A stretch of 20,000 nt of DNA from an uncultured virus (IMG/VR IMGVR_UViG_2923146907_000004) (Duplodnaviria > Heunggongvirae > Uroviricota > Caudoviricetes). Under the pieces are notes generated by a model, which saw nothing but the letters and a program-made list of their open reading frames with translations, did not search any database and had not been told where the DNA came from. The translations under genes and the position numbers were made by a program. Of this stretch, positions 3-19,595 are shown in pieces. The stretch lies in IMG/VR virus record IMGVR_UViG_2923146907_000004, one strand, 5' to 3'. The stretch's first letter is position 1. Each line of letters begins with the position of its first letter.

Positions 3-1655
3 CCGGAAGCCCCTGGCGGCCTGAACATCGACGACCTGCTGGCCGACCTGGACGTGGGCGACATGGACGACCTGCCCGACGCGCCGACCATGATCCCGAT
101 CAACATCCCGGACGCGCCGAGCATGACGGCCATCCCGGTGCCGGAACGCCCGGACATCGACACCACGGTGGAGATTCCCGACGCGCCGCAGATCGCCATG
201 CCGGACATGGAAGCGCTGGAACAGATCCGCCTGCCGGAATTCGTGTTCCCCGAGTTGCCCACGTTCGATGCCACGCCGCCGGACGCGAGCGGGATCACGG
301 TGCCCAACGTCTTCATCAACTGGCTGGAACCGGAGTACCAGTCCGAGGTGCTGGACGAGTTGCAAGCGAAGATCAAGGAACTGATGGCGGGCGGCACCGG
401 CCTGCCTGTACCCATCGAGCAGGCGCTGTTCGCCCGCTCCCGCGAGCGCGACAGCGGTGAAACCACCCGCGCCGTGCAGGAGGCGGTCGATACTTGGGCC
501 GCCCGCAATTTCTCCATGCCGCCGGGGATGCTCGCCAGGCAGGTAGATGTGGTGCGCGAGCAAGGCCGGCTGAAGGCGGCCGAACTGAACCGCGACATCC
601 TGGTGCAAGCGGCCACCTGGGAAATCGAGAACCTGCGCTTCGCCGTGCAGCAGGGCCTGGCCCTCGAGCAGTTGACCGAGAACATGCACCAGAACATGGC
701 GCAGCGCCTGTTCGAGGTCGCCCGCTTCCACGCGGAAAGCCAGATCAACGTGTTCAACGCGCAGATCAGCCTGTTCAACGCGCAGAACGCGGCCTTCGAG
801 ACGCTGGCGCAGGTCTACCGCACCAAGCTGGATGCGGCTATCTCCAAGCTGACTGCCTACAAGACCGCCGTGGAGGGCCAGGTGGCGCTGGGGCAAATCA
901 ACCAGCAGCGCGTCGAGGTGTTCAAGGCCAAGCTGGACGCCGTACAGTCGAGCGTCGAGGTCTACAAGGCGCTGATGCAGGGGGCATCCGTGCGCGCCGA
1001 GACGATCAAGAACCAGTTCGACGCCTACCGCGCAGACGTGCAGGCGTATGCCGAGCAGATCGGCGCCGAGAAGGTCAAGTTCGACGCCTACGAGGCCCGT
1101 GTCAAGGGCGAGTCGGCCAAGGCGGACGTGCTCGATGCGCAGGCCCGCGCCTACGCTTCGACCATTCAGGGGTTGGCGAACAAGGCCGATGTCAAGGTCA
1201 AGGGCGCGCAGATCAAGATGGAGGCGGCGCGCACCAAGGTGTCGAAGTTCTTGGCGGACGTGGACGCCTACAAGGCCACCCTGCAGGCCAACCTGAGCGA
1301 GGTGCAGTACAACACGTCGGTGTTTCAGGCCCAGGTAGAAGCCTGGCGCGCAGCGGCCAGTGCCAACGTGGCCGACGCCGAGATGCAATCGCGCTTTGCC
1401 GACATGAACAGCCGGACCAACATCGCATACGCGGAAATGCAGATCAGCGAGTACACCGCAAAGATGCAGAATGCCGTACAGCAGGCGCAGATCGCCCTGG
1501 AGGCAGCCAAGGCCTTGGGGCAGTACACCGCCCAGCTCGCGGCCGGCGCTATGTCGGCGGCACATGTATCGGCCAGCATCAGTGGCTCAGGAAGTGCTAG
1601 TACAGGTGAAACAAAATCCGAAACAACTTCGACTTCTTATAATTATAATTATTGA
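3..1655 (+). CDS. Phage virion structural/internal protein, Pro/Asp-rich N-terminal part followed by long Ala/Gln-rich coiled coil (5'-truncated)
   Basis: The frame is open from base 3, upstream of the ORF-track start at 54, to TGA at 1653-1655. It has strongly GC-biased third positions, helical heptad-like sequence and a C-terminal SASISGSGS...SYNYNY tail, and lies directly upstream of ejection-type genes. Confidence 0.75.
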   Translation, partial: PEAPGGLNIDDLLADLDVGDMDDLPDAPTMIPINIPDAPSMTAIPVPERPDIDTTVEIPDAPQIAMPDMEALEQIRLPEFVFPELPTFDATPPDASGITVPNVFINWLEPEYQSEVLDELQAKIKELMAGGTGLPVPIEQALFARSRERDSGETTRAVQEAVDTWAARNFSMPPGMLARQVDVVREQGRLKAAELNRDILVQAATWEIENLRFAVQQGLALEQLTENMHQNMAQRLFEVARFHAESQINVFNAQISLFNAQNAAFETLAQVYRTKLDAAISKLTAYKTAVEGQVALGQINQQRVEVFKAKLDAVQSSVEVYKALMQGASVRAETIKNQFDAYRADVQAYAEQIGAEKVKFDAYEARVKGESAKADVLDAQARAYASTIQGLANKADVKVKGAQIKMEAARTKVSKFLADVDAYKATLQANLSEVQYNTSVFQAQVEAWRAAASANVADAEMQSRFADMNSRTNIAYAEMQISEYTAKMQNAVQQAQIALEAAKALGQYTAQLAAGAMSAAHVSASISGSGSASTGETKSETTSTSYNYNY

Positions 1656-1689: not shown

Positions 1690-2040
1690 TTAAGGCTGGT
1701 TGTCTTTTTGAAGATTTTGATATTCTTCCCAAGGTTTTTTTTCTTCGTCATACAGCTTGCTGCATGCAATGAATATCATGCGGCCAGCTAAGTTGCTCGG
1801 TGTCTCCTTTCCTATTGCCATCATGCAATCTCTGCCTGACTTGTAGCCAAATAATCCTCTCCCAGACCCTTGTTCGACCTCTAAGAGTGCATTTGGGTAT
1901 TGGCCTGCGCAAAGACTTATCACCACCCGGGCAGCCTGATCGTTTTGCACTTCTGGCATTTTATCCAAAATGCATGTTGCATAGTCTCCTGCTATTGAAG
2001 AGGTGGAGATAATTGTCAGTAGGAACAATAAATTTCTCAC
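1690..2040 (-). CDS. Secreted/periplasmic four-cysteine moron protein (VF_A0006-like), candidate superinfection exclusion factor
   Basis: GTG start with a GGAG RBS about 10 nt upstream. Sec-type signal peptide MRNLLFLLTIISTSSIA. Two repeats of a C-x(~20)-C unit (YATCILDKMP...SLC; RDCMMAIGK...IAC). AT-rich and antisense to the structural operon. The family name is from recollection. Confidence 0.8.
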   Translation of the reverse strand: MRNLLFLLTIISTSSIAGDYATCILDKMPEVQNDQAARVVISLCAGQYPNALLEVEQGSGRGLFGYKSGRDCMMAIGKETPSNLAGRMIFIACSKLYDEEKKPWEEYQNLQKDNQP

Positions 2041-2113
2041 AAGTACTTTTCTCCGGTTGTGCGCCCGGAATATATAGCTTTTGGTTCATTGGCGGAAAGT
2101 GGATACGCCATAG

Positions 2114-2130
2114 CCCCCTGTAGGGTTCGT
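2114..2130 (+). promoter_or_regulatory. Putative phage late-promoter/activator-binding motif CCCCCTGTAGGG
   Basis: A near-identical motif (CCCCCTGTAAGG) recurs at 15675. Both copies are intergenic and lie 75-95 bp upstream of the first gene of a late module. Confidence 0.5.
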
Positions 2131-2189
2131 CCAAAAATGAGACGAGCAGCAAGATTGAATCTGTATCCAAGCCGTTTTAGAGGCATCCC

Positions 2190-4352
2190 ATGTACGGATT
2201 CAAGAAGGGCGCCAAGCCCAAGCAACGATTTGCAGATGGTGGGCGGGTGCGTGGTCCAGGCACTGGCACCTCCGACGACATCGACACCGAGGTGCCCGCG
2301 GGCAGCTACATCATGCCGGCCGATTCGACCGAGCAGATTGGGGAAGCGGCGTTGCAGGGTATGGGAGCGCCGGTCCCGGTCAGCCTGAGCAACGGCGAGT
2401 ACCAGATGCCTCCCGAGCAGGTTCATGCCGTTGGCGTGCAGGCGCTGGACGCTGTGAAGAATGCCACTCATGTGCCGGTAGCCCAGCAGGCAAAAGGGTT
2501 CTCTCCGCGTAAAAGGGGAGAGAATGGCGCCGAGAAGCCGGAATTGTTCTTCGCCGACGGCGGGGTTGTCGATGAAGAGCGCAAAAAGCAGACCCGTTTC
2601 GACATCACCAACACGCCCGCCGCCCAGCGTGCCGCTGGCGTTGTGCCGGAGGCATCGTCTCCCGTAGCTACCAGCGGCTACAGTGCAGACCCCACCATGG
2701 CAAAGGCGCAGGCCAATATCGATGCTGAACGGCAAGCGATGGCTGTGCATCGCCAGCGCACTGCGGATGCCGCGAATCTCCAGCCGGGAGTGGCACCAGG
2801 CTACAGCGACAACCTCTATACCGCCAACGCCCAGGCACGTTCGGATGCAGCCCGGCAACAACAGGCCATTGCACAGGCCGGACCACTGCCCGATATACCG
2901 TCGACACAAGGCTTCGCGCCATCGCGACAAGGTAATGACCCAGCCAGAGCGGCAAGGATGCAGGCTCAGTTTGATCAACCGGTAACGGGCCCTGCTCGAT
3001 CCAAAGCGGCTGGTTTCACTCCGCAGTACCGTACTGAAGGGCCTGGCTGGCGAACCGACTCGGTTCTCCGCGGGACGGGCGACGACGTAGCGCAGCAGTG
3101 GGCATCGGGTGAGTATGCCCGTGGCTTTGGGACCGGCGTGCGTGGGGCGCTTGCGGCGGTTCCCGCAGCATTCGCTGATGCTGGAGAGGATGTCGGTCGA
3201 TTGGCGGAACCGGTGATCAACTTCGGTAAAGGGCTATTCGGATGGGATGACACTCCGCCGGCGCTTCGTGGTCAGCAAGCAGCCCAGGGTGCAGCGGCGC
3301 CAAGTTCCAGTGCTGCGCCCGGGCGAGGCCAGGTGTTGCCGGCTGCTGGTGCGCCAACCGGAGCGCTGGAGTCGGCGGCGAATACTGGAGCTGCTATGCC
3401 AAGCGCCGGTGGCCCGGACCTGCCCAACAACGTGACGCGGGTGGGCAACAGCTTCTCCGGCACAACAATCCGCCCGGGCTACACCGTTAACGGGGAAGCT
3501 CAAGCTGCGGGGTTCGCCCCAGGTGGTCAGCGGAGTGCTCAAAACCAGCGCGCAGTGGAGAACCTGCTGGCCCGAACGCCTGATGTGGGTATGGGGTTCA
3601 GGCCGAGTTCTGTCTCCCAGGTACCGCCGATGGCCCCGGACGCGTTGGCTCAGTACAACGCCGGTAACTCCGGCGCGCCTCGGGTAACCGTGGTTCCCGA
3701 TAGCTCTCGGGCCGATAGCGTTCGCCAGGCCGCCTTGAATGCAGCCTCAACACCTTATCGCGGTTCGCCGAACGGGCAGTTAACTGCCCGCCAGATCGAC
3801 AACCTGTTCGGGCTCCAGCAGAGCGATGACCGCAATGCTACGTCCCTGGCGAGCACTCGGGCGAATAACGACACGGCCTTGGTGCGGGAGCAGGTGCAAC
3901 AGCAGGGCGCAAATCAGCGCGCGGCTCTACAGGAAATGGGGCAGGGCGCGCGCTTCCTCGCAGCCAACGAACTCGATCGCCAGCGCCTGGCTGGTGAGCA
4001 AGAGGCCAGGGGTTTCCAAACCCGCGCCGCCCAGCGCATCGAGAAGCTGTACGAGCAGTACGACAAGGCTGCTCCCGAAGACCGCGCCGCGATCGCCGAA
4101 CAGATTCGTGTGCTTGCTGGTAAGGACGCTCCGAATCGCTTCACCGTGGTACCTGGCGGCCAGGAGTACGACCCGCAGTCCATGCAACTTCTGACGCGCC
4201 CTGCACGAGTACTCAACAACCAGACCGGCCAATTTATCGACCAGCAAACGCAGTCGGCGCAACCCGTCGCTCCGCGAACTGGTGAGGTGCGAAGTGGATA
4301 CCGGTTCAAGGGAGGGAACCCTGCCGACCAGAATAATTGGGAGAAGGTGTAA
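2190..4352 (+). CDS. Probable internal virion / DNA ejection protein (720 aa)
   Basis: GAGG RBS then ATG. The N-terminal FADGGRVRGPGTGTSDDI...LSNGEY motif is of the type seen in tape-measure and ejection proteins. The body is low-complexity A/G/Q/P sequence with a compact C-terminal GYRFKGGNPADQNNWEKV module. Its stop overlaps the next start (TAATG). Confidence 0.7.
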   Translation: MYGFKKGAKPKQRFADGGRVRGPGTGTSDDIDTEVPAGSYIMPADSTEQIGEAALQGMGAPVPVSLSNGEYQMPPEQVHAVGVQALDAVKNATHVPVAQQAKGFSPRKRGENGAEKPELFFADGGVVDEERKKQTRFDITNTPAAQRAAGVVPEASSPVATSGYSADPTMAKAQANIDAERQAMAVHRQRTADAANLQPGVAPGYSDNLYTANAQARSDAARQQQAIAQAGPLPDIPSTQGFAPSRQGNDPARAARMQAQFDQPVTGPARSKAAGFTPQYRTEGPGWRTDSVLRGTGDDVAQQWASGEYARGFGTGVRGALAAVPAAFADAGEDVGRLAEPVINFGKGLFGWDDTPPALRGQQAAQGAAAPSSSAAPGRGQVLPAAGAPTGALESAANTGAAMPSAGGPDLPNNVTRVGNSFSGTTIRPGYTVNGEAQAAGFAPGGQRSAQNQRAVENLLARTPDVGMGFRPSSVSQVPPMAPDALAQYNAGNSGAPRVTVVPDSSRADSVRQAALNAASTPYRGSPNGQLTARQIDNLFGLQQSDDRNATSLASTRANNDTALVREQVQQQGANQRAALQEMGQGARFLAANELDRQRLAGEQEARGFQTRAAQRIEKLYEQYDKAAPEDRAAIAEQIRVLAGKDAPNRFTVVPGGQEYDPQSMQLLTRPARVLNNQTGQFIDQQTQSAQPVAPRTGEVRSGYRFKGGNPADQNNWEKV

Positions 4353-7300
4353 TGGCCGATACCAGCAAGCCATGGGAAGAGTTCGCGTCTCAACAGTCAG
4401 TAACTGGTGGCGAGAAGCCGTGGGAGGAGTTCGGTGGCGAGACGAAGGAGGAGGGAAGAGGCCTGATCGGGCATGCGCGCGACCTTGGCCTATCCGTGGC
4501 CAAGGGGGTGATTGGGGTTCCGGAAGCGGCTGTTGGCCTCGCTGATATCCCAACAGAGGGCCGCGTAGGTAAGTTCCTCGAGAACCAGGACGGCATGCTC
4601 GGCTTCCGGCCCCGGGAGGCGAAGGATTTCCTGAGTGATCTGCACACCGATCAGTACAAACAGCAACAGCAGGACTTTCAGGATGCTGATGGCGTCGTAG
4701 ACAAGACGCTGCATGCTGTACAGAACCCGTCGATGGTCGTGAACACCGTAGCGGAGTCTTTGCCTTCCATGTTGGCGGGGGGCGCGGTCGGTCGTGGCGT
4801 TCGGGCGCTGGCTCCAGCGTTGGCACCTGTGGCAGCCGGCGCGGCTGGCGAAGGGGCGGTTATGGCTGGTCAGCAAGCAGAGCAGATCCGCCAAGAAACT
4901 GATGACGGCTTGCTCACTCCGGCGCAGTCGGGAGCTGCGGTGGCCACTGGTGTGTTGGGAAGTCTGTTTTCCCTTGCCGGCGGTAGCTTGGCCAAGAAAC
5001 TGGGTATCGGTGATGCGGATACCCTCCTCGCTGGTGGTGCCAACCCAGGACAACTGGTCAGCGAGCTGGCGTCCATGCCGGCGAAGAGCATTCCGCGGAA
5101 GGTGATAGAGGGCGCAATCTCCGAGGGCTTCCTTGAGGAACTGCCACAGTCCGCATCTGAGCAGGTTCTGCAAAACCTGGCGCTGGGACGGGACTGGGCC
5201 AGCGGCCTGGATGAAGCGATGGTAATGGGAACGCTGGCCGGGATGGCCATGGGTGGGCCGGCGGCGGTTCTGCATGGCGGTCAGCCGGCAGCGTCCCGTG
5301 GCCTGGCGGATGCGGACGCTACCTTCGAGAGTACCCCGGGCCTTGAGGGGCAGACTGAGACGACTGCGCCACTGGCACTCCCAGCTCCAGTGTATGAGGC
5401 TGGTTCTGACGGCCAGGTCCGGACCACGGTCGACCAGAACTCCGCTACCCAGGCACAGCGTCAGCAAGAGGCTGAACGTCTGGACCGAATCCGTCGAGGT
5501 GAAGTCACCGATGTGACTCCGGTCCCGGCGGCCCCAAAGCGCTCCGAGCAGATGGGTCTGGACCCGGCTGCTGGGCCACTGTCTGGTGCTGCTGCGCAGG
5601 CCGTGGACAGTGGCGCAACTGACCAGATGGTGCAACAAGCCGCGCTCCAGCAGGCAGCCGAGGAGGCGCAGAAGAGCGGCAGGAAAGGTGATCAGGTCAA
5701 CCCGGAAACCGGTGAGATTACAGCGGAGCAGGGTGATCTGCTGGCATCCGATCCTGTCACCGATCTGCAGGGCCGCCTGGAATTTGTACGCCGGCAAGCC
5801 CGTGCCACCGGATGGGACGCGAAGAAAATCGCCGAGCGCGATCGCTTGCAGGAAGAACTGGACAAGCTCGCGCCACCGCCGGATGCCGGCTACATGCAGC
5901 GCGTCGGTGAGCGCGTGAAGCGTATCGAGGCCGCGCAGAGCCCCGATGAAATTGCCGCGATCCTCGCCGAGGATCAGCAGGATGAGCAGCGCCACCAGAA
6001 CGCCGCTGGCCGGGTGGAGCTAGCCGCCCGTGCTCGCGGCTTCGCCCTGGACCAGGCGGCGCAGCAGCAAGCCCCGACGCCAATCGGTGTGCAGGACGAC
6101 ATCCAGCAGGCCCAAGGCAAGGCTGACACGCAGCAGGCGCAAGCCGCACAACCGGTTGCATCGCCGGCGCCGGCAGCGGAATCCGTACCGGCCGCGTCTG
6201 CGCCTGCGATAGAGGCCGCGAAGCCGTCCAACCTGAAAGACGCCATCGCCAAGGTGCGCCAGGACAAGGCGCAAGCGCCGAAGGCCGAGCCGGTCCAGCA
6301 GACCGCCGCACCCGCCGCCGATCAAGCACGCTACGCCGACCTGGCGCAGCAGTTCAATGCCATGGTTCCGCAGTTGAAGGCGGCGCGCGAGGGCGGCAAC
6401 ACTTCCGAAGTGGAGCGCTTGACCAATGCCATGCGCCCGCTGGACACCGAAATGCGCCAGCTCCAGGCGCGCGAAACCAAGCGCACCTTGGATCTTGGCC
6501 AGCAGGCATCCAAGGCGAAGCTCGAGCAGGAACTGTCCGGCGAGGCCATCGGCACCCGCCGCCGCCCGAGTGAGCACGCGCCGGAGAAGGGCCTGTACTG
6601 GGAAAAGACCGGCACCAATGAATGGACCGGGCGCGGTGCGTGGTTCCAGAAGGGCAAGACCCGCACCGACGCGGACATGGCGCAGTTCGGCGGCACGCTG
6701 GTGATGCCGTCCGAGCAGGCCGCGCAGAAGGCCCCGAGCATCGAAGGCAAGGACATCGGCGAAGGCTGGGCGGAGTTCAGCAAGGAATCGGGCACCGCGG
6801 GTATCCCTCGCGCCGACATGCCGCAGATCAAGGCCGAGCACCGCGGCGCGATGGTGAACTTCCTGAGCGCTCGTGGCGTGCAGCATCAGGAAGAGACAGT
6901 TCCCGCAGATACCCTCAAACCGACGCAGGCGGAGTTCAGCCGGGATAAGGTGGCGAAGGCCAAGGGCTTCGAAGGTGGCAACCGCTCCATTCTGGTGTCG
7001 CGTGACGGCCATGTGCTGGACGGCCATCACCAGTGGATGGCGGCCCGCGACAACGGCGAAGAGGTGAAGGTGATCCGCCTGGATGCCCCCATCCGCGACC
7101 TGGTGAAACTGGCCCACGAATTTCCCAGTTCCACCACCGATGCCAGCAGCGGGCAGGGCGCCACGGTTGAAGCGAAGCAGGTGAGGCCCAAGCCTGAGCC
7201 AGCAGCTCCTGATGTGCCTAAGAAGAAGCCGCGCGGCGTGCTGGCAAAGAGGTTACAGGCCGAGGCCCAGGCCCGCGCCGAATACTTCACCCCCGGCAAC

Positions 7301-10300
7301 GTGGTGCGAGGTTACGGCGCCAACTACGACAGGGTTATCAGCTACAACCCGACCGAATCGGGAAGCTGGACCGTCACGGTGCGCAGTGTACGCAAGGAAG
7401 GCGACACCTGGGTGGATGTCCCGGGCGAGAGCGAGCGCACTCACATGACGGCGCCGGATGCGCGCGACATGAAGCGCGGCCCGGCCGGCCGTATCGCAAC
7501 ACAGGGGGCGCCAACCGCCGATGAGTTCCCCTTGAAGGAAGCCGCAGCCAGCTACTCCGGTATCTCGAACAGCAGCAGCCAGCGAGCGAAGTCCGATGCG
7601 GATGAGTTCCAGACCTACATCGACGTGGCCCGCGACGCGGGCGCTGTCGTGGCACGCACCGATGCTCAGCAGGCGGCCGTGGAGCAAGCCACACGAGAAT
7701 TGCGGGCCGATTACCTGGCCCAGTACCGGCGCCTGATGAACGTGCGCGCCGGCACCTACAGCGGCTATGTTGTCGGGCGTTCTGGACTGAACAGCAAGCA
7801 GGCGGACAGGCGCAACAGCGCCTACGACCGCGCCATCGACACATTCGTGGCCTGGCAGAAGTCCAATCAGGATCGCGTGCGCCAGGCGGCACTGGACGCC
7901 CGTACCGACGAGGAAAAGGCGGCAGATCGCCAGGCCGCCGAGCAGGCCCGTGCCGACAAGGCGCAGCGCAAGGAAGACGGGGACCGCAGCCTGATGCGCA
8001 GGATTCTGTCCTGGAAGAAGGGCAGCGAGCCGGTGGCGATCACCAAGACCGCGCACCTTGCCGGGGTGAACTTCGGCAAGGATGGCTACCCGACCAGCAT
8101 TAAGTTGACGCCGACCGATGGCAGCGTGCTGACGAGCGACAAGTTCGACCTAGCGACGCTGTTCCGTGAGCGCGGCATGAGCGTGCCGGAGTCGAAACGC
8201 CGCGTGCGTGAACTGGTCGATTTCGTGCGTGCCGAGGATGCAGCCCGGCCCCAGTCCGAACCGGCAGAGGCACCCAAGCCCGATCCCGCGCAGCCCAGCG
8301 ATTCGAAAACCCCGACGCTCGATGAGCATGTAGCCCTCATGCAGCGCGCGCGCAGTGGGGAGGCGACCGCCGACGAGTTCCGCCAGGCATTCGAGCGTAC
8401 GCAGAACGCCCGCGACGCCCTGGTGGCCGAGCTGGGCACTATGAAGAAGGATGAACTGCTGAAGTCAGGCGGCTACAGCTTCTTCCACCGCTACCGCAAC
8501 GAGAAGAAGGCAGCGATTGTCGATGCCCTGGCCGGTCGCGTGTTGGAGGAATTTGCGCTGGGCCGCAGCTACGGCCCGAGCAGCTACGTGATGTCGGCTG
8601 CTGGCCTCGAAGCGCACCGCCAGGCCAAGGCCAGCGCGCTGGCCGAGCTGGTGGCGAACACCACCGACGACGACATCAAGGCGCACGCCGCCGAGGTCGC
8701 CGAGGCGCAGCAGGAAATCCAGGCCCGCCGGGCAGCGCAGCAGAAGGCTGTCGCCAACCCGCAGACCCTCGCCGAGTTCCGCCAGGCAGTGAGCTACAAC
8801 ATGGAGACGCACGGGGAGTCCCTGCGGGAGGCGTTCATGCGCCTGACGCCGGAACAGCGTATTCGCTACGACGAACTGGAGGCTGAGAGCACCAAGGCCC
8901 TGCGTGAGCAGGCCAAGGCACAGGCCAAGACCCGCGTAGCCAGCGCCGGGCAGACTACGGCCGGCGACATCATCGAGACGAAGCACACCAAGCACGGGCA
9001 TGACCTGTTCGTGGTCCAACTGGCCGAGCGCGTCAGCCGTGAGGACTACGACACCCTGAACAATTCGGCGAAGCGGCTGGGCGGCAGCTACAGCAGTTAT
9101 CGTGGGAATGGCGCCGTCCCCGGCTTCCAGTTCCGCACCCGCGAGGCGGCCGAAGCATTCCGTAAGCTGGTGACAGGCGACACCGCCGACGCGCAGGCCG
9201 TTGCAGAAGCGCGCCGCGACGCCTTCGAGGATGACCGCAGTCAGGGCGCCGCCGAGCGACTGCGCACCATGGCTCAGGCCCTCAACGAGCGGGCCGATGA
9301 AGCGCTGAATCGCGAGCGCAAGCAGAACACCGAGCGCCGTGCGCGGATGGCCGCCCGCGCTGAGGCCTCTGCGCGGTCCGACAAGGCACTGGCCGCCACC
9401 ATGAACAACCTGGCCGATGCCATCGAGGGCGGCAAGGCCAAGTTCCTGGACACCGTGCGGCAGAAAGTGCAAGTGGAGTTCCTGGCGCGGGAACTGCGCA
9501 ATGCGAAGGACGCGCAGATTCGTGCGAAGTACCCGACTTACGGCGAGCAGGAGAAACACCGCGGCGAGCCGGTGGACGCCGAGACGGTGGACTACTCCAC
9601 CTTCCCCAGCTACACCGCCATGCGCTCCGACCTAGCGAGCCTGGCGCGCCAGATGGCGGATGTGGACGGCCTGAAGAAATTGGCCGCGCGCCTGGAGAAG
9701 GTCGCCGACGATGTGACCGAGGCCTACACGGACTGGGCCAAGCAGAATCTTCTGTCCGTCAGCCGCTTCACCCGCGGTGACCAGTTCGCCGACTTCAAGA
9801 GTCGCGAGGATGCCGAGCGTGCCATTCGCCGCTCCGGCCTCACCGGCAAGGCCATCGTGCTTCCGGTGAAACGCGGGCAGAACCGCATCGTCATGGCCCC
9901 CAGCGAAGCCATGAAGCTGGGCCTCTGGCAGGGCGACGGCGACAAGCGCATAACGCTGTCCGGCGAGTTCGGCGGCGAACTGGTGCAGGCCCTCGGCCGG
10001 CGCAGTGGCAGCAAGATCACCGTTCCGTGGGCGCTGGAGAGCGCGCACGAAAAGCGCAAGCGCCTGGAGAGCATGGGCATCCTCACCGGCAGCGAGTACC
10101 GCTCTGCACTGCGCGAGTTCGTAGCGCTGCGCGAGGCGCCCGCCGAGCCCGACAAGATCAGGGAAATGGAACGGTCCATGATCGGCCGTCGAAATGACGG
10201 ACTGGACTTCTTCCCGACTTCGGCCGCCGTCACCGAGGAAGCCGTCGACGCCGCCGACATCCAGGAAGGCATGGACGTGCTGGAGCCTTCCGCCGGCATG

Positions 10301-13300
10301 GGCCATATGGCCGACGCGATCCGCGAGCAGACCGGCGTAGAGCCCGATGTGGTGGAGCTTTCCAGCGAACGCCGCGAGTTGCTGGAGGCCAAGGGCTACA
10401 ACCTGGTCGGCTCCGACTTCATGGAGGTGTCCGGCAAGCAGTACGACCGTATCGTGATGAACCCGCCGTTCTCCAAGGGGCGCGACATCCAGCACGTACA
10501 GCACGCCTACAGCCTGCTGAAGCCCGGCGGCCGCCTGGTTGCCATCATGGGCGAAGGCGCCTTCTTCCAGAGCAACAAGGCCGCCGAGAACTTCCGGGCC
10601 TGGCTGGACGGCCTGGGTGCCACCAGTGAACGGCTGCCGGAAGGTTCGTTTATGGACCCGGCGCTACCCGTCAATACCGGCGTGAACGCGCGCATGGTGG
10701 TGATTGACAAGCCGGCAGCCGAAGAGTCGGCAGCGCCGCAGCCCGGCGAACAACCGCCCGTGCAGTACTCGTTCGCCGGCCGCAATGCCGTCGGCGCCAA
10801 CCTGCATGCCCTGAGCACCGCACAGCAGCGCATCGCCATTGGCGAAAACGCCGAGGCCGTTCGCCGAGATACCGGTTGGCACCGTAGCGCTGATGGCAAG
10901 TGGCGCTTCGAAATCAGCGATCATCAGGCCAGCATCGCCGTGGCCGGTGAGACTGCTGGCGCCATCATCAATATGGCCCACCTCAATGCCATCAACGACG
11001 AGCGCAGTCGACCGACCGTCGGCGATGTGCTCAACCATCCTCAACTGTTCGCTGCATATCCTGACCTGCAGCGTATCCCGGTGGCAGTGATGCCAGAGGG
11101 CATCACTGCGCTGGCTCGCCTACGTCGGTTCGCCACGGGTAACCAAGTTGAGGTTCAGGCGAACATGCCGCGCACCGAGGTTGCCTCGGCGATCCTGCAC
11201 GAACTCCAGCATGCGATACAGATCCGGGAAGGTTTCGCCATGGGTGGCTCGGCCAGGGCTTTCGTCAGCAACTTCGACAAGACTGGTGCGGCGACCTATC
11301 GTCGTTTGGCTGGAGAGGTGGAGGCGCGCAACACGCAGGCTCGGCTGAAAATGACGCCGCGCCTGCGCCGGGACATCGCACCCGATGAGTCGGCGGACAT
11401 CCCTGCAAGTCAGGTGCTGGTGTCGTTCAATGGCCGCGACATCGAGAATGGCCCGTTGCCGCAGAACCTGACGGGGCGTCCGCCGATGACCTCGCAAAGC
11501 CTGGTTCGTGCTTTCGACCTGCAGTTCCCAGCCCTGGGCCAGGCTGTGCGCAAGATGCTGAAGCGCGGCAAGGAAGGACAACGGGGCGGCTTGGTGGTGA
11601 TCGACAGCGCCGACCCGTTGCGCATCGCGCACACCTACGCGCGGAAATCCGGTACCGCACTGAGCGATGCCGTTCAACTGTTTGAGGATGGCGGGCGCAT
11701 CAATGGCTTCTACGATGCCAGATCAGGTCTAACTTTTCTGGTCGGCCCGAACCTGAATCCGGTAACCGCACCGGCCGTGGTGCTTCACGAAATGGTTCAC
11801 GGCCAGCAGCGGCAGAATCTCGACCAGGCTGCCCACGCCATGCTGATGAATCGCGGCAACGTGCGGAGCGCCGAACTGCGCACCTTCCTGGACCGTGTGG
11901 CCAGCCGCATGATCGAGGCCGGCGAGAGCCGCAACATGAAGGAGGCCGCTCCGTATATCGTGGAGCAGGCTGTTATTGAAGGGCGAGAGCAGGGGTTCGC
12001 CGAGGCTGATAGCCGGTTCCTGTCCTGGGTAGACAGTGCGCTGGGCAAGCAGGTGGGTGACTTCCTGCGTAGGTTCCTGGCCAACATCCGTCAGTGGACG
12101 CTGCGCCACGGTCTGCCGGTTGGCCGTATCAGCGTGGACGATCTGGTGCGATATGCGATGGCTGGCGTGGAAAGCGCCGCCGAAGGCCGGGTAAGGAGCG
12201 ACGGCCTAGCCATGAGCCAGGACGACATGCGAAAGGCGCGCGTGCTGCAAGGCCCGCCGGTGGCCATCCTGGAGGGAAATGAAGCACCACAGGGCTTCGC
12301 TGCGGTTCGCGAGTGGGCGGCGAAGCTATTCGAGTCTCAAGGTGGCAAGGCAGTGAACCCGGACCTGGGCGACGTGGTGCTGGATATGCGCGCTGTGCGC
12401 GACTCGATGGCGCATGGCAAGGCCAACCCATACAAGTTCTCGGCGTTCGCGGCCGTCAAGGACGTGCTGGAGCGAGGTGTGGTGGTTCACCGCGCGGACT
12501 ATGAGAAGGGGGAGAGTTTCTACGTGTCGGCGCCGGTGGTGATCGACGATAAGGATGACATCGTGACTGTGTTGGTGCGCCGCGATCCGAACATGCAGCG
12601 CATGTATCTGCATTCGGTGGCCACAAAAGAATATCTCCTGAACCGTCGAGTATCCGGTGCTGATGCCATGATGGCAGCGCAGCCTTCCGGCTCGTCCAGT
12701 TCAGGAGACGTAGCCAGTGTACTCCAGCGGCTGCTGACCGCAAGCCTGAATGAACCCGAAGGTCCGCAGTTCAGTCGCTCCGGTCTGCGCGAACTCACCA
12801 GCAAGGCTACCGCCGAACTGAACAAGACCTTCAGCGCTCCGGGAGGCCTGTCCTGGTGGCACAAGACCATCGGCACCATGTACAACCTCGCAGAGCGTTC
12901 CCCGGCATTCAAGCCGGTCTTCGAGTCGGCGCAAGGATTTATCGATGACGTGAGCTATTACGCCAGCGATGCGGCTGATCTGGCGCCGAAACTGCTGCCG
13001 AAGCTGGAAACCTGGCGCGACATTGCAAAGTCCCCGGTGGGCGCTGAGGACAACAAGGCGGTGGCCAAGCCGGTATTCGAGGGCACGCTGATGTGGGCGC
13101 GCGACGTGGACGGCAAGCCGGTGCGCGTCGATTCGCTGGCTGAGCGCGCCATGCGTCTGACGGCCGACGAGAAGGCGGACATCCTGCTGAAGCAGGGCAA
13201 GATTCCCGAGGGACTGCTGCGCGCCTGGCGCGGCCTGAGCCCCGAGCAGTTCGCCAAGATGATCGACAGCCGCTACGAGGCGCAGATGCTCAAGGCAGGC

Positions 13301-15673
13301 ATCGTCTGGACCGACGCTGAGCTGCGCGACATATGGAAGCTCAACGATGCTCAGGTCGCGCTGTACCGCGAGTTCCGCGCCGCCACCGACCGTAGCCTGG
13401 ACACCATGGCCCGCGCCGACATGCTGCGCTTCGGCGGCGAGGATGTGAAGGAACTGCGCGACCAGGTGATGGACGCGGCCGATGCGCAGGAGGGGGCCGC
13501 GATACTGCGCGACCACCTGGCGCAGATGGCTGATGCATGGCCGGAACGCGCCACGAACCTGCTGAACCTGGCACACGGCATGACGGATCGCGCCGAGAAG
13601 GTCGCCCAGTTGCAGGGCGAGGGCTATGCACCGCTGTCGCGCTTCGGCAAGTACACAGTGGACGTGGTGGGTCAGGACGGTCAGCGTGAATACTTCAGCC
13701 TGTTCGAGACGAAGCGCGAGGCCAACCAAATGGCTGAGCAGATGCGTGGCGCGTTTCCTGGCGCCACCGTGAGCCAGGGCACCCTGTCCGAGGAAGCGTA
13801 CAAGCTATTCGCCGGCATCACACCGGAAACGCTGGAACTGTTCGGCAACGCCCTCGGTTTCGACTCACAGGGCGATAGCGCACGTGATCAGGCTTTCCAA
13901 GACTACCTGCGCCTGACAAAGACCAACCGCAGCGCAATGCGCCGGCTTATTCACCGAAAGGGCATCGCTGGTTATAGCGAGGACGTAGGGCGGGTACTGG
14001 CCTCGTTCGTATACTCCAATGCGCGGCAAACCGCCGCCGGTCTGCACATGGGCGACCTTTCCGAGGCTGTGAACGGCATCCCGCAGGCGCAGGGCGAACT
14101 GAAGGACGCCGCGGTACGGCTGGCCGACTACATCAAGAACCCGCAAGAGGAGGGGCAGGCGGTGCGCGGACTGCTGTTTGCGCAGTACCTCGGCGGGTCC
14201 GTCGCGTCAGCCTTCGTCAACATGACCCAGCCGGTCCAAGTGACTTTTCCCTGGCTGAGTCAGTATTGCGGGGTGAAGCGCGCTGCGGCGGAACTGGGGC
14301 GGGCAGCACGACAGATGGCGCAGCGCTCCTATCAGTTCGAACCGGACCTGGCCCGGGCATTAAAGCGCGCAGAGGATGATGGGGTGGTGTCCCCGCAGGA
14401 GGTCCACCAGTTGATGGCGCAGGCCCGCGGCAGCGGCTCGCTGCGCGCCGGGGACGGGACGCGCTTGGGTGATGCTCGAGCACTTGCGTCCAACAGCGTG
14501 GCGCGCCTGTCGATGGCCTGGGGCAAGTTGTTCGGCGCCGCAGAGCAGATCAACCGCCGCATGACCTACATCGCGTCGTATCGCATCGCCAAAGCGCAGA
14601 ACATGGCCAATCCTGACGAGTTCGCACGCCGGGCCGTGCGCGAGACGCAGTTCGTATACTCCAAGGCCAGCAAAATGCGCTGGGGGCGTGGTGCCGTCGG
14701 CGGCACCTTGATGACCTTCAAGACGTACAGCGTGGCCTATCTTGAGCTGATGCATCGCTTGTGGAATCAGGGTGAGCCTGGTTCGCAGGAGCGCAAGGAC
14801 GGTCGGAAGGCTGCTGCCCTGATGATCGGTATGCTGCTGCTCGTCGGGGGCGCCGGTGGCTTGCCGTTCGCCGAAGACGCCGAAGACCTGATCGACGGTG
14901 CGGCGCAACTCATGGGCTACAACTTTTCTACCGCGAAGGCCAAACAGGAGTTTCTTGAAAGTCTGTTCGGTCGGGTGCTTGCCGACTTCATTGATCGCGG
15001 GGTGTCCGGACTGCCTGGTGCTCCGCTCGATGTCTCAGGCCGGTTGGGCATGGGGAACCTGATTCCTGGAACCCGGCTACTCCAGCCCGCCCCCGCGAAT
15101 ATTCGCGATGTGCTTGAAATAGCTGGCCCCATGGGGGACTTCGCGAATCGCATCCTTGAGGGCGGGAAAAAGATCGCCAGTGGCGACATCGGTAGCGGGT
15201 TGCTGGAAATATCCCCGGGGGCGGTACGAAACGCTGCCAAGGGGGTGGATATGCTCGCCACTGGGATGTACCGAGACACGAAGGGCTACAAGGTCTTGGA
15301 TACCAACACGCTTGAGGCCGCGATGAAGATGATCGGCTTCCAGCCTGCCAGTGTGGCGACCATTCAGGAAGCCAACATGCTCAGCCAGAAGGCGAAGGCC
15401 TTCTACAACCTGAAGGCGCAAGATATCCGCAGTATGTGGGCAGCCGGCGTGTTCGAGAAGGACCAAGGTAAGGTTGAGCGCGCGCGGCAGGCAATTGTCG
15501 ACTGGAATCGGCGCAACCCTGACCAGCCGATGGTCATTCGTGTTCCGGACATCATGCGGCGAGTCCGCGAAATGTCGCTTTCGAAGGATGAGCGGATAGC
15601 GAAGACAGCACCCAAAGCAATGCGACAGCAGATGCGAGAGGATCTGGCGCGCACCCGCGCAGCTCTGGACTGA
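4352..15673 (+). CDS. Giant polyvalent virion/ejection protein, PLxRFG-domain containing, with DNA adenine methyltransferase (DarB-like anti-restriction role inferred), 3773 aa
   Basis: 11.3-kb ORF with its ATG at 4352 coupled to the upstream stop. Motifs: Gly/Ala-rich hydrophobic N-terminal region; ParB-like LKPTQ...LDGHHQW (~6910-7036); MTase DFFPT / LEPSAGMG / NPPF (10205-10471); TGWHRSADGKWRFEISD (LPD23-like, 10871-10921); HELQH (11198) with GEVEAR; HEMVH (11786); LPD3-like segment (~12290-12640); YAPLSRFGKY (13631). Confidence 0.9.
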   Translation: MADTSKPWEEFASQQSVTGGEKPWEEFGGETKEEGRGLIGHARDLGLSVAKGVIGVPEAAVGLADIPTEGRVGKFLENQDGMLGFRPREAKDFLSDLHTDQYKQQQQDFQDADGVVDKTLHAVQNPSMVVNTVAESLPSMLAGGAVGRGVRALAPALAPVAAGAAGEGAVMAGQQAEQIRQETDDGLLTPAQSGAAVATGVLGSLFSLAGGSLAKKLGIGDADTLLAGGANPGQLVSELASMPAKSIPRKVIEGAISEGFLEELPQSASEQVLQNLALGRDWASGLDEAMVMGTLAGMAMGGPAAVLHGGQPAASRGLADADATFESTPGLEGQTETTAPLALPAPVYEAGSDGQVRTTVDQNSATQAQRQQEAERLDRIRRGEVTDVTPVPAAPKRSEQMGLDPAAGPLSGAAAQAVDSGATDQMVQQAALQQAAEEAQKSGRKGDQVNPETGEITAEQGDLLASDPVTDLQGRLEFVRRQARATGWDAKKIAERDRLQEELDKLAPPPDAGYMQRVGERVKRIEAAQSPDEIAAILAEDQQDEQRHQNAAGRVELAARARGFALDQAAQQQAPTPIGVQDDIQQAQGKADTQQAQAAQPVASPAPAAESVPAASAPAIEAAKPSNLKDAIAKVRQDKAQAPKAEPVQQTAAPAADQARYADLAQQFNAMVPQLKAAREGGNTSEVERLTNAMRPLDTEMRQLQARETKRTLDLGQQASKAKLEQELSGEAIGTRRRPSEHAPEKGLYWEKTGTNEWTGRGAWFQKGKTRTDADMAQFGGTLVMPSEQAAQKAPSIEGKDIGEGWAEFSKESGTAGIPRADMPQIKAEHRGAMVNFLSARGVQHQEETVPADTLKPTQAEFSRDKVAKAKGFEGGNRSILVSRDGHVLDGHHQWMAARDNGEEVKVIRLDAPIRDLVKLAHEFPSSTTDASSGQGATVEAKQVRPKPEPAAPDVPKKKPRGVLAKRLQAEAQARAEYFTPGNVVRGYGANYDRVISYNPTESGSWTVTVRSVRKEGDTWVDVPGESERTHMTAPDARDMKRGPAGRIATQGAPTADEFPLKEAAASYSGISNSSSQRAKSDADEFQTYIDVARDAGAVVARTDAQQAAVEQATRELRADYLAQYRRLMNVRAGTYSGYVVGRSGLNSKQADRRNSAYDRAIDTFVAWQKSNQDRVRQAALDARTDEEKAADRQAAEQARADKAQRKEDGDRSLMRRILSWKKGSEPVAITKTAHLAGVNFGKDGYPTSIKLTPTDGSVLTSDKFDLATLFRERGMSVPESKRRVRELVDFVRAEDAARPQSEPAEAPKPDPAQPSDSKTPTLDEHVALMQRARSGEATADEFRQAFERTQNARDALVAELGTMKKDELLKSGGYSFFHRYRNEKKAAIVDALAGRVLEEFALGRSYGPSSYVMSAAGLEAHRQAKASALAELVANTTDDDIKAHAAEVAEAQQEIQARRAAQQKAVANPQTLAEFRQAVSYNMETHGESLREAFMRLTPEQRIRYDELEAESTKALREQAKAQAKTRVASAGQTTAGDIIETKHTKHGHDLFVVQLAERVSREDYDTLNNSAKRLGGSYSSYRGNGAVPGFQFRTREAAEAFRKLVTGDTADAQAVAEARRDAFEDDRSQGAAERLRTMAQALNERADEALNRERKQNTERRARMAARAEASARSDKALAATMNNLADAIEGGKAKFLDTVRQKVQVEFLARELRNAKDAQIRAKYPTYGEQEKHRGEPVDAETVDYSTFPSYTAMRSDLASLARQMADVDGLKKLAARLEKVADDVTEAYTDWAKQNLLSVSRFTRGDQFADFKSREDAERAIRRSGLTGKAIVLPVKRGQNRIVMAPSEAMKLGLWQGDGDKRITLSGEFGGELVQALGRRSGSKITVPWALESAHEKRKRLESMGILTGSEYRSALREFVALREAPAEPDKIREMERSMIGRRNDGLDFFPTSAAVTEEAVDAADIQEGMDVLEPSAGMGHMADAIREQTGVEPDVVELSSERRELLEAKGYNLVGSDFMEVSGKQYDRIVMNPPFSKGRDIQHVQHAYSLLKPGGRLVAIMGEGAFFQSNKAAENFRAWLDGLGATSERLPEGSFMDPALPVNTGVNARMVVIDKPAAEESAAPQPGEQPPVQYSFAGRNAVGANLHALSTAQQRIAIGENAEAVRRDTGWHRSADGKWRFEISDHQASIAVAGETAGAIINMAHLNAINDERSRPTVGDVLNHPQLFAAYPDLQRIPVAVMPEGITALARLRRFATGNQVEVQANMPRTEVASAILHELQHAIQIREGFAMGGSARAFVSNFDKTGAATYRRLAGEVEARNTQARLKMTPRLRRDIAPDESADIPASQVLVSFNGRDIENGPLPQNLTGRPPMTSQSLVRAFDLQFPALGQAVRKMLKRGKEGQRGGLVVIDSADPLRIAHTYARKSGTALSDAVQLFEDGGRINGFYDARSGLTFLVGPNLNPVTAPAVVLHEMVHGQQRQNLDQAAHAMLMNRGNVRSAELRTFLDRVASRMIEAGESRNMKEAAPYIVEQAVIEGREQGFAEADSRFLSWVDSALGKQVGDFLRRFLANIRQWTLRHGLPVGRISVDDLVRYAMAGVESAAEGRVRSDGLAMSQDDMRKARVLQGPPVAILEGNEAPQGFAAVREWAAKLFESQGGKAVNPDLGDVVLDMRAVRDSMAHGKANPYKFSAFAAVKDVLERGVVVHRADYEKGESFYVSAPVVIDDKDDIVTVLVRRDPNMQRMYLHSVATKEYLLNRRVSGADAMMAAQPSGSSSSGDVASVLQRLLTASLNEPEGPQFSRSGLRELTSKATAELNKTFSAPGGLSWWHKTIGTMYNLAERSPAFKPVFESAQGFIDDVSYYASDAADLAPKLLPKLETWRDIAKSPVGAEDNKAVAKPVFEGTLMWARDVDGKPVRVDSLAERAMRLTADEKADILLKQGKIPEGLLRAWRGLSPEQFAKMIDSRYEAQMLKAGIVWTDAELRDIWKLNDAQVALYREFRAATDRSLDTMARADMLRFGGEDVKELRDQVMDAADAQEGAAILRDHLAQMADAWPERATNLLNLAHGMTDRAEKVAQLQGEGYAPLSRFGKYTVDVVGQDGQREYFSLFETKREANQMAEQMRGAFPGATVSQGTLSEEAYKLFAGITPETLELFGNALGFDSQGDSARDQAFQDYLRLTKTNRSAMRRLIHRKGIAGYSEDVGRVLASFVYSNARQTAAGLHMGDLSEAVNGIPQAQGELKDAAVRLADYIKNPQEEGQAVRGLLFAQYLGGSVASAFVNMTQPVQVTFPWLSQYCGVKRAAAELGRAARQMAQRSYQFEPDLARALKRAEDDGVVSPQEVHQLMAQARGSGSLRAGDGTRLGDARALASNSVARLSMAWGKLFGAAEQINRRMTYIASYRIAKAQNMANPDEFARRAVRETQFVYSKASKMRWGRGAVGGTLMTFKTYSVAYLELMHRLWNQGEPGSQERKDGRKAAALMIGMLLLVGGAGGLPFAEDAEDLIDGAAQLMGYNFSTAKAKQEFLESLFGRVLADFIDRGVSGLPGAPLDVSGRLGMGNLIPGTRLLQPAPANIRDVLEIAGPMGDFANRILEGGKKIASGDIGSGLLEISPGAVRNAAKGVDMLATGMYRDTKGYKVLDTNTLEAAMKMIGFQPASVATIQEANMLSQKAKAFYNLKAQDIRSMWAAGVFEKDQGKVERARQAIVDWNRRNPDQPMVIRVPDIMRRVREMSLSKDERIAKTAPKAMRQQMREDLARTRAALD

Positions 15674-15674: not shown

Positions 15675-15690
15675 CCCCCTGTAAGGATTT
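15675..15690 (+). promoter_or_regulatory. Second copy of putative late-promoter motif CCCCCTGTAAGG, upstream of the lysis cassette
   Basis: 11/12 identity to the motif at 2114. It begins 2 bp after the giant gene's stop. Confidence 0.5.
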
Positions 15691-15729
15691 GCCGTTCTCT
15701 GGCTGTACCGAAAACTACCTGCCCAAGAA

Positions 15730-15750
15730 GCCGGGGCGTGATGCCCCGGC
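15730..15750 (+). promoter_or_regulatory. GC-rich stem-loop immediately upstream of the holin RBS
   Basis: GCCGGGGC-gtgat-GCCCCGGC is a perfect 8-bp inverted repeat, followed by CTTT and then GGAGGA. Confidence 0.55.
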
Positions 15751-15767
15751 CTTTGGAGGATGGCGTT

Positions 15768-16025
15768 ATGTCGGAGAGGGCCGGAATGGCGGTAGAGGTG
15801 GTGGGCGTTTCGGTGGCCAACAAGACCACGCTGGCTGGCGCCCTTGCGGGCGCGTTGGGCTGGCTGGCGCAGATCAACTGGGTGGGGCTGATCGGCGTGC
15901 TGGTCGCCGTCATCGGTCTGCTGGCCAATATCTATTTCCAGGTTCGCCGCGACCGCCGCGAATCAGCCGAGAGCGCTGCCCGCATCGAGGCCATCCGGGG
16001 GCGTTGCGATGTCGAACAGCCGTAA
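15768..16025 (+). CDS. Holin (small membrane protein, possibly pinholin-type)
   Basis: GGAGGA RBS at 15755-15760 and ATG at 15768. Hydrophobic segments (TLAGALAGALGWLA; WVGLIGVLVAVIGLLANIYF) precede a charged C-terminus. It overlaps the endolysin start. Confidence 0.85.
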   Translation: MSERAGMAVEVVGVSVANKTTLAGALAGALGWLAQINWVGLIGVLVAVIGLLANIYFQVRRDRRESAESAARIEAIRGRCDVEQP

Positions 16026-16536
16026 CCGCGTGCTGGTTGCCGCGCTGACCGTCAGCCTGGCCGGCTTCGGCGCCTGGATGAAGTCGGAGGACTTCAGCGC
16101 GAAACCATACGTGCCGACCAAGGGCGACGTGCCGACCATCGGCTACGGCTCCACCCGCTACGAAAGCGGCCAGCCCGTCAAGCTGACCGATCCGCCGATC
16201 ACCCGCCAGCGCGGCGAACAACTGGCGCGCAACCTGATGGCGAAGGACGAACAGCAGTTCCGCGACTCGCTGCCTGGCGTGAAGCTGTTCCAGGAGGAAT
16301 ACGACCTGTACCTGGATTTCACGGGGCAGTTCGGCATCACCAACTGGCGTGGCAGCTCGATGCGCCGCGACCTGCTGGCCGGCAACTACCGCCAGGCCTG
16401 TGATGACCTGCTGAAGTGGCGCAACCAGGGCGGGCGCGATTGCTCGCTGCCGAAGAACTGGGGGCCGCAGGGCTGCAAGGGCGTGTGGACGCGCCAACAG
16501 AAGCGGCATGCGCAGTGCATCGCCGCGCAGGAGTGA
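16009..16536 (+). CDS. Endolysin, GH24 (T4-lysozyme-like) with probable N-terminal SAR anchor
   Basis: Basic N-terminus and a weakly hydrophobic Ala/Gly-rich helix (VLVAALTVSLAGFGAW), then catalytic-region SEDFSAKPYVPTKGDVPTIGYGST. It also has YDLYLDFTGQFG, ACDDLLKW and GVWTRQQKR, and sits between holin and spanins. Confidence 0.9.
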   Translation: MSNSRNRVLVAALTVSLAGFGAWMKSEDFSAKPYVPTKGDVPTIGYGSTRYESGQPVKLTDPPITRQRGEQLARNLMAKDEQQFRDSLPGVKLFQEEYDLYLDFTGQFGITNWRGSSMRRDLLAGNYRQACDDLLKWRNQGGRDCSLPKNWGPQGCKGVWTRQQKRHAQCIAAQE

Positions 16537-16539
16537 CGC

Positions 16540-17061: not shown

Positions 17062-17071
17062 GGAGGAAACC

Positions 17072-17665: not shown

Positions 17666-17740
17666 GGTGTCGTCACAGCGCTGCATGGCTGATGCTGGTA
17701 CGCTTGATACGTACGGAGCTTCAACCAAAGGAAGTTGGTC

Positions 17741-18370: not shown

Positions 18371-18407
18371 AGTTGTAGACTACGGCCTTTTCCTACGGAG
18401 CAGGGCG

Positions 18408-18674: not shown

Positions 18675-18677
18675 AAG

Positions 18678-19190: not shown

Positions 19191-19226
19191 GGGAATCTCC
19201 GGCAGTCGGGTGGGCCGGAAATTATG

Positions 19227-19242
19227 CTGTATGAATATACAG
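19227..19242 (-). promoter_or_regulatory. LexA (SOS) box CTGTATGAATATACAG
   Basis: Matches the gammaproteobacterial CTGT-N8-ACAG consensus with an AT-rich core. It abuts a CATAAT -10-like hexamer on the minus strand (19221-19226). Confidence 0.85.
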
Positions 19243-19371: not shown

Positions 19372-19402
19372 TTCCTTTTGATAAATTCATTTTAGCTTTA
19401 CA

Positions 19403-19589: not shown

Positions 19590-19595
19590 TATTTC

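Follow-up and report, generated by a model that had tools for sequence, protein, structure and literature searches.

A putatively secreted prophage protein ends in the N-terminal motif of a giant virion protein: candidate superinfection exclusion by motif mimicry

The DNA analyzed here (20,000 nucleotides [nt] of an uncultured virus, IMG/VR record IMGVR_UViG_2923146907_000004; called the window below) comes, judged from its sequence, from a temperate podovirus of Pseudomonas aeruginosa that is F116-like (Hollowayvirus) and represents its virion-protein region, with genes and a gene order near-identical to those of F116, H66, LKA5, and phiC725A. Between the genes for a 630-amino-acid (aa) and a 720-aa protein, on the opposite strand and antisense to the late genes, sits a small gene for a putatively secreted 116-aa protein. 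Its C-terminal tail carries the hexapeptide KPWEEY, and the near-identical KPWEEF stands twice at the N-terminus of a 3773-aa giant virion protein encoded downstream. At least eight classes of such motifs co-vary between tail and giant protein among related prophages. The explanation that we favor, and to which we give about an even chance, is superinfection exclusion by motif mimicry, in which the small protein would be a periplasmic decoy competing with the incoming giant protein for a module at the C-terminus of the 720-aa protein. The features concerned are as follows.

1690..2040, minus strand: gene for the 116-aa four-cysteine putatively secreted protein (PF28034 / VF_A0006-like), with a GTG start
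1693..1746, minus strand: variable C-terminal tail of that protein, residues 99-116, with KPWEEY at 1720-1737
2190..4352, plus strand: 720-aa virion/ejection-type protein (phrog_11341, no known function)
4245..4349, plus strand: C-terminal variable module of the 720-aa protein, approximately residues 686-720, class ...GYRFKGGNPADQNNWEKV; candidate motif-binding site
4352..15673, plus strand: giant polyvalent virion protein, 3773 aa, with LPD23, LPD3, and methyltransferase domains
4367..4384, plus strand: first KPWEEF copy, giant residues 6-11
4415..4432, plus strand: second KPWEEF copy, giant residues 22-27

A sequence-only reading of the window had reported these three motif sites, and its coordinates and codon statements were all correct. 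It had also seen the hexapeptide nowhere else in the window's proteins, and a six-frame translation bore this out, KPWEE occurring at only three sites (1723-1737 on the minus strand, 4367-4381 and 4415-4429 on the plus strand). The small protein ends ...LYDEEKKPWEEYQNLQKDNQP, and the giant protein begins MADTSKPWEEF...GGEKPWEEF. Taken alone, the match inside the window is weak evidence. An exact 5-mer was shared with the window's plus-strand proteins (6211 aa) by 7710 of 20,000 shuffled versions of the small protein, and a window-only match is therefore not significant. When only the giant protein's first 40 aa were considered, 472 of 200,000 shuffled versions shared an exact 5-mer, and the observed local score was matched by 3 of 2000 shuffled tails. 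It is the comparison across loci that makes the evidence strong.

The loci for this comparison were obtained by pattern scans, which gave 5 loci from bacterial genomes (Comamonas, Lautropia, Azoarcus, and Chromatiales), 19 from IMG/VR, and 21 from metagenomes. In the related prophages, too, the giant N-terminus bears a tandem short motif that matches the tail encoded next to it. First, local alignment scores between the tail and the first 70 aa of the giant protein were calculated for all pairings of nine nonredundant prophages. The cognate partner scored highest in every one of the 9 rows and in 7 of the 9 columns, and the diagonal sum was reached by the true pairing only, one of 362,880 permutations. 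Second, among 13 groups, misses included, the cognate partner scored highest in 12 rows and 9 columns, and none of 1,000,000 random pairings reached the cognate sum. Third, each tail was compared, independently of annotation, with every open reading frame (ORF) of at least 150 aa in its own locus. A complete core was present at 45 loci, and scoring was possible for 41 of them; in 21 of these 41 the best match fell within the first ~50 residues of the giant ORF. Among the other 20, only L045 and L054 (discussed below) have the giant 5' end, so that 21 of the 23 loci with both a tail and a giant 5' end fit. The motif classes are wholly unlike one another from locus to locus. In the Pseudomonas class, the tail has KPWEEY and the giant protein KPWEEF; the other classes include the following pairs.

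Lautropia (L011): giant GPWTNY and GPWSQY; tail GPWIEY
Azoarcus (L013): giant FDPSSAR and FDPSTAK; tail FDPRTAR and FDPSTAR
L020: giant PPGFVPFTGKLD; tail PPGFIPFTGKLD
L023: giant FSYEDAFGL; tail FSYEDAFGL
L031: giant DAFGGTLV; tail DRFGGVLV
L032: giant IDDFLSGKP; tail VDRFLNGSP
L046: giant INWNDFSPV; tail VNWSDFTPV

A further pair is TFTYEEAYG in the tail and TFSYEDAYG in the giant protein. The sequence-only reading had proposed that the likeness is kept at the protein level, and this held in the window and at other loci: of the 4 to 11 identical motif residues in each pair, 1 to 6 were encoded by different codons, which argues against a DNA copy. The check that it had suggested, whether the tail co-varies with the N-terminal repeat of the giant protein, came out positive in all three tests, and homologue tails differ from one another rather than keeping KPWEEY whatever the giant protein carries. 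That the likeness has no function, being a short low-complexity coincidence or debris of local recombination, is therefore very improbable. Such an origin could draw on the many shuffled proteins that share some 5-mer with the window, but it would leave unexplained the unique cognate pairing, the synonymous codon differences inside the motifs, and the position of the match, which is always at the C-terminal tail of the small protein and the extreme N-terminus of the giant protein. As a separate observation, an 813-aa protein at L033 (10102-12540, minus strand) opens with two NPWDND(E/V)(I/V)IRPAP repeats, and the adjacent small gene (9839-10102, plus strand) is truncated after ~49 profile positions.

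The 720-aa protein had been proposed as the partner of the motif, through its C-terminal module, and the class of the tail was indeed found to track the class of this module. Members of the 720-aa family have a conserved body up to ...NNQTGQF(V/I)DQ, then a linker, and then a module of ~30 residues that falls into discrete classes. Across 26 distinct pairs of module class and tail class, the Mantel rho was 0.20, a value reached by 3 of 20,000 permutations. The associated classes are listed below, module first.

GYRFKGG[ND]PA..WE.V: tail PW..[YF]
G.LY[VI]DA.GN.ATF.NG.WVP: tail FDPSTA
GKPVY[EQ]DA.G...: tail PF.G.LD
GQ.YQT..G.A.W[ND]G..F: tail F[ST]YE[ED]A
...LSREQK.EALRKLGY: tail [IV]D.FL
...AAQFDA.[FY]G.GA: tail N[YP]F
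...G..AVWDG.KWV: tail DWENG

A good example is the comparison of L011 with L053, whose giant N-termini are identical and bear both the PF.G.LD and the GPW..Y class. L011 has the module ...GYRFKGGDPA..WERV and the tail GPWIEY, whereas L053 has the module ...GKPVYEDANGKRF and the tail LVPFNGKLDGEQ. The motifs of this two-class N-terminus are PFSGKLD, GPWTNY, GPWSQY, and KPFDGELD (4224-4523 on the minus strand of L011, and at the start of the giant ORF in L053). A two-class giant protein may be an intermediate that tolerates exchange of the module. In the AlphaFold2 (AF2) model, the 720-aa protein is mostly disordered apart from a long helix (residues 533-626) and small beta elements (651-676); residues 701-720, beside these beta elements, have a predicted local distance difference test (pLDDT) score of 91-93.

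From these relationships we infer a role of the motif in ejection, binding of the tail to the 720-aa module, a periplasmic location of the small protein, and an exclusion phenotype, which could be connected as follows. The N-terminal motif of the giant protein would be a docking signal that the 720-aa protein captures through its C-terminal module, as the internal proteins exit the virion and re-form a DNA conduit in the cell envelope. In a lysogen, the periplasm would be full of the exported small protein, with its free motif copies on a constant scaffold, and when a related phage arrives, these decoys would occupy the module on its proteins. The incoming giant protein could then not dock, and DNA entry would fail. 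Export would keep the decoy out of the cytoplasm, where the lysogen's own virions assemble. A broader form of this proposal, which we hold with slightly less confidence and only tentatively, is a widespread, modular, and reprogrammable exclusion system, in which the PF28034 scaffold would display swappable copies of the docking peptide that links the giant N-terminus to the 720-aa module. The ~10 classes would then be the trace of an arms race, tails of several classes would be broad-spectrum decoys, and two-class giant proteins would be intermediates. Patchy presence, many motif classes, and multi-class tails fit an accessory, arms-race function.

The small protein itself has features suited to such a role, as the sequence-only reading had supposed in describing a periplasmic display scaffold: a signal-peptide-like N-terminus, four cysteines, a confidently predicted helical core, and a less ordered tail.

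1984..2040, minus strand: putative signal peptide, approximately residues 1-19 (R2 in the n-region, hydrophobic core, SIA|G), read from the sequence
1747..1983, minus strand: all-helical conserved core, residues 20-98, with Cys23, Cys44, Cys72, and Cys93 (AF2)
1735..1742, minus strand: A8 homopolymer over two Lys codons before PWEEY
2050..2054, minus strand: Shine-Dalgarno-like GGAGA, 9 nt before the GTG start
2069..2074, minus strand: -10-like TATATT, ending 7 nt before 2062; a weak promoter hint

Homologues start with a canonical signal-peptide-like stretch ending AxA|ANYATC. In the AF2 model (97 sequences; mean pLDDT, 88.2), the part before residue 20 is unstructured and of low confidence, residues 21-100 are at 96-99, and the tail is less confident, with pLDDT blocks of 79 and 67. 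Cys23 and Cys72 were invariant in the 97 sequences, and Cys44 and Cys93 were at least 90% conserved. Past the putative signal peptide, the model shows a helical domain that is compact and soluble, and no hydrophobic stretch was seen in this part of the sequence. The small protein is thus predicted to be a Sec-exported, disulfide-stabilized helical protein that would reside in the periplasm. A Foldseek comparison of the core with the PDB gave no match at E values of ≤0.001; a wide VIA-align search with the small protein gave a best Z score of 3.4, and the only match of its sequence profile in the PDB had an E value of 0.43, so no fold was assigned.

Some hints of expression were found in contigs from RNA-Seq libraries. 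Contigs over the small gene, from two libraries of one study, spanned 1552-2062 (X7) and 1701-2062 (X10), and both stop at 2062, a position 22 nt ahead of the start codon and 7 nt past TATATT; together, the contig ends and TATATT are a weak hint of a promoter. A scan of 1500-2400 for consensus promoters and terminators gave no sites. The genes flanking the small gene had little or no contig cover in X7 and X10, absence from contigs being no evidence, and in the X8 and X14 RNA runs contigs extended across the whole 6-kb stretch.

Several observations weigh against mimicry as we describe it. First, in 27 of 35 loci the stop codons of the small gene and the 720-aa gene are on opposite strands at a distance of only 1-31 nt (28 loci are convergent, and the seven loci of the window type are divergent). 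Since the tail-coding and module-coding ends abut in these 27 loci, the association of module with tail could be plain linkage. Linkage cannot, however, produce the likeness between the tail and the motif of the giant protein. Second, at L054 the tail PDWENGIITPP lies beside a giant protein with FDPxxAR motifs. This locus is a remnant, with a 720-aa gene truncated to 146 aa and bacterial genes after it, and its tail agrees with the module class of the remnant and not with the adjacent giant protein. Third, the likeness at L045 is weak (ADWWKKDATP in the tail versus ADWGVGDKEY / TWGENDKPAT in the giant protein); it was reached by 837 of 2000 shuffles and, being ambiguous, was counted as a miss. 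Fourth, L024 and several other loci have the small gene and a 720-aa homologue with no giant gene within the available DNA. Fifth, the motif is removed by a frameshift in two UNVERIFIED records. The A8 tract is present in 8 of 9 compared sequences and is A7 in the UNVERIFIED record of F_ET605sp (L003, 4001-4375), where the tail becomes ...EEKNLGKNIKIF and the motif is lost; the small-gene match of JBD90 is 88.7%, the same as that of F_ET605sp. The A7 variant could be either a sequencing error or a slippage switch that turns the tail on and off. Sixth, the contigs reveal neither the strand nor the level of the RNA. Seventh, six phages (H66, F116, Epa33, D14I, USP_25, and 8P) have a giant protein with KPWE(E/S)F and lack the small gene, which fits an accessory role and lends no support to exclusion. 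Finally, PADLOC-DB 2.0.0 has no model for the small protein, a scan of P0001, P0003, P0010, and P0011 having given no families.

The linkage just described bears on an alternative that would still be exclusion by mimicry, namely, that the motif of the giant protein docks on a host periplasmic or inner-membrane protein and that the small protein competes there. The 720-aa module would then co-vary only by being encoded beside the tail and the start of the giant gene, as the abutting stop codons and the presence of module and giant start in one exchangeable cassette (see below) would allow, and the hosts of the loci do differ (Pseudomonas, Comamonas, Lautropia, and Azoarcus). We consider this unlikely, though worth keeping in view. 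Two motif classes within P. aeruginosa, and at least eight overall, exceed what one would expect a conserved host factor to impose, and where the giant N-terminus is identical, the tail nevertheless follows the class of the 720-aa module.

A role other than exclusion is less likely still. The docking motif might let the small protein join or regulate the phage's own machinery; the 720-aa protein might, for example, recruit it in the envelope at a late stage of infection or upon lysis. If the signal peptide has been misjudged, the small protein might instead be a component of the virion or of its assembly, targeted as the giant protein is. The syntenic place among virion genes at the 28 convergent loci and the phage-like guanine-cytosine (GC) content outside Pseudomonas would suit this, as they suggest a core accessory gene rather than a drifting moron. 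On the other hand, the gene is dispensable, given the six phages that share the giant motif without it, and it lies antisense to the late operon. In addition, AxA-type signal peptides and four conserved cysteines point to the periplasm, and tails of several classes suit a broad decoy and not the joining of one machine.

With regard to family, the small protein belongs with PF28034. A search of 5.8 billion proteins returned two clusters of 97% identity and two relatives of 53-54%, all labeled PF28034; for the proteins at 97% identity over 100% of the length, the precomputed label is PF28034.1. In a profile search, 447 of 1.84 billion representatives matched at E values of ≤0.001 and 235 at ≤1e-10. 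The Atlas gives the family its Pfam 38.1 name, "four-cysteine protein VF_A0006-like," and the nearest clusters are 64-94% PF28034 (score, 0.91). The four conserved cysteines of PF28034 are present. The NCBIfam model NF041602 (VF_A0006 family) scored 37.7 bits against a cutoff of 65 bits and aligned with residues 19-47 only, which places the small protein, by sequence comparison, as related to but outside this narrow subfamily. A Pfam scan gave no family for the small protein, the Pfam copy used being one without the PF28034 model. PF28034 and NF041602 name a family for which no assigned function was found, and the link between tail and giant protein is absent from the family names.

Within the family, the core is constant, and the tails diverge after a conserved C..LYD. 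The kinds of tail include PW..[YF], FDPSTAR, PF.G.LDGE, TF[ST]YE[ED]A[YF]G, and [IV]D.FL, as well as DRFGG, NYFD.[YF]D, DWENG[IV]I, NW.DF.PV, WWKK[DN].TP, and others, and some tails string several motif classes together (for example, P0034 and P0029). Some long members carry, after the short motif, a conserved region of ~70 aa, HY..IY.AHPDAD...F..W...G.T..[VI]I..F..YK (P0032, P0042, P0053, P0054, P0058, P0072-P0074, P0108, P0112-P0114, P0117, P0128, and P0132). A neighboring ORF at L047 holds this region too. A Pfam scan of eight long members with extra C-terminal regions gave no families.

Among phages, a tblastn search with the small protein found 10 records, all from Pseudomonas, including F1Pa, phiC725A, LKA5, Atpa001, E220, F_ET605sp, and JBD90. 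Most GenBank records do not annotate the 116-aa ORF as a coding sequence, those of LKA5, phiC725A, F1Pa, E220, and Atpa001 among them. At the small-gene site, the LKA5 record shows only predicted promoters and a terminator, and the Atpa001 record has three short opposite-strand ORFs instead of the 116-aa gene. The sequence-only reading had called the gene a moron. This description suits the Pseudomonas phages, in which the gene is AT-rich and either present or absent, but not the beta-proteobacterial prophages, in which it has a phage-like GC content and a fixed place abutting the 720-aa gene. Over 1501-2000 the GC content is 0.474, most of the window being at 0.61-0.69; in Pseudomonas the gene itself is at 0.45 versus 0.65 for the phage, and versions elsewhere are at 0.57-0.70, near the phage value. 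The beta-proteobacterial prophages carry unrelated cargo between the small and giant genes (L010, 3805-5718; L026/L027, 6195-8450; L048, 5882-7456), such as a 638-aa protein with a P-loop-like GQNSSGKTT, and this site looks like a hotspot for accessory genes.

Exchange of the motif was apparent from comparison with phage BR228a. The two sequences are 95-97% identical over the window and, as judged by LKA5, likewise over the structural region from the terminase on. Three segments are unlike BR228a: the small-gene region (1604-2150), the segment 4247-4446, and giant residues ~639-792. The second of these forms one block of module and repeats.

4247..4446, plus strand: exchangeable cassette of the 720-aa module and the giant N-terminal repeats (blastn versus BR228a, no alignment)

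Because the portal, the coat, and the other conserved parts are shared between the window and BR228a, they are hardly the phage-encoded specificity partner. The third segment, 6268-6727 in the giant gene, has no BR228a alignment and is flanked by sequences of 96-97% identity; it is a second exchangeable module. At the small-gene site, 19 phage records have an unrelated 63-aa protein with a putative signal peptide and a C-terminal membrane helix (L004, 1439-1630). This protein of the BR228a group was considered as a second mimic, of WGENDKIV/FGANDEVV repeats, and rejected: its likeness was matched by 179 to 2312 of 5000 shuffles, and it also occurs in Epa33, whose giant protein is of the KPWEEF type, and so does not track the motif type.

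Exclusion of related phages at the DNA-entry step is known from other prophages. Ltp of Streptococcus phage TP-J34 and gp15 of HK97 are prophage-encoded, act outside the cytoplasm, and stop DNA entry via the tape-measure protein or ejection apparatus; both are from siphoviruses, and Ltp is a lipoprotein, whereas the small protein has no Cys at its predicted cleavage site. To our knowledge, both act by binding the target, and neither imitates the motif of a partner. A short disordered motif that competes for a periplasmic binding site is known from the colicin TolB box, which mimics Pal. There, however, a bacteriocin attacks a host complex, whereas the decoy proposed here would be a prophage's weapon against phage proteins.

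The nearest precedent is SieA of P22, a prophage-expressed envelope protein that blocks the DNA injection of relatives, with escape mutations in the C-terminal portions of the ejection proteins gp16 and gp20, according to the accessible part of Leavitt et al. 2024 (PMC10883804). Like the small protein, SieA comes from a temperate podovirus prophage; its target is the conduit of ejection proteins, as is proposed for the small protein. No homology between the two was seen, none having been tested for. SieA is a membrane protein for which the same part reports no mimicry, whereas the protein described here looks soluble and has no membrane segment after the signal peptide; it lacks the spanning segments of the inner-membrane SieA family and, unlike SieA, carries the motif of its presumed competitor. 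The LPD23, LPD3, and methyltransferase domains of the giant protein fit the DNA-co-injected polyvalent proteins described in the accessible part of Iyer et al. 2017 (PMC5512222), which does not describe an N-terminal tandem motif or a secreted mimic; neither "F116" nor "packaging signal" occurs in the text of that paper. Mimicry is not mentioned in the accessible part of the phiC725A paper, and full-text literature searches gave no published description of motif mimicry. Thus, prophage exclusion at DNA entry is known, and the motif-mimicry mechanism would be new, no description of it having been found in print.

If the proposal is right, superinfection exclusion would gain a new mechanism, competitive short-motif mimicry rather than a membrane block, and a named but uncharacterized family with hundreds of diverged members would acquire a function. 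The sequences alone point to a specific contact between ejection proteins, that of the giant N-terminal repeats with the last ~30 residues of the 720-aa protein, in phages where little has been described of how these proteins assemble in the envelope. The table of classes predicts which prophages exclude which phages, can be tested with P. aeruginosa Hollowayvirus isolates, and bears on the choice of phages against lysogenic clinical strains.

Three genes follow one another on the plus strand, those for the 630-aa protein (of which the end is present), the 720-aa protein, and the giant protein.

3-1655, plus strand: 630-aa protein, end of the gene

The last 161 residues of the 720-aa protein had 346 relatives, and the first 200 residues of the giant protein matched 39 records. 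The giant protein matched phrog_11358 over its full length and had domain matches to LPD23 (1.8e-19), LPD3 (2.1e-12), and a methyltransferase; it is a very large virion protein with several unrelated domains, LPD domains among them, as is typical of phage polyvalent proteins. In H66, the homologue bears the annotation "structural protein ... verified by mass spectrometry." Short plus-strand ORFs follow downstream, at 15689-20000, and the genes of this stretch in BR228a bear the names holin, lysozyme, outer-membrane lytic protein, and tail fiber protein; based on this annotation, the giant gene directly precedes the lysis cassette.

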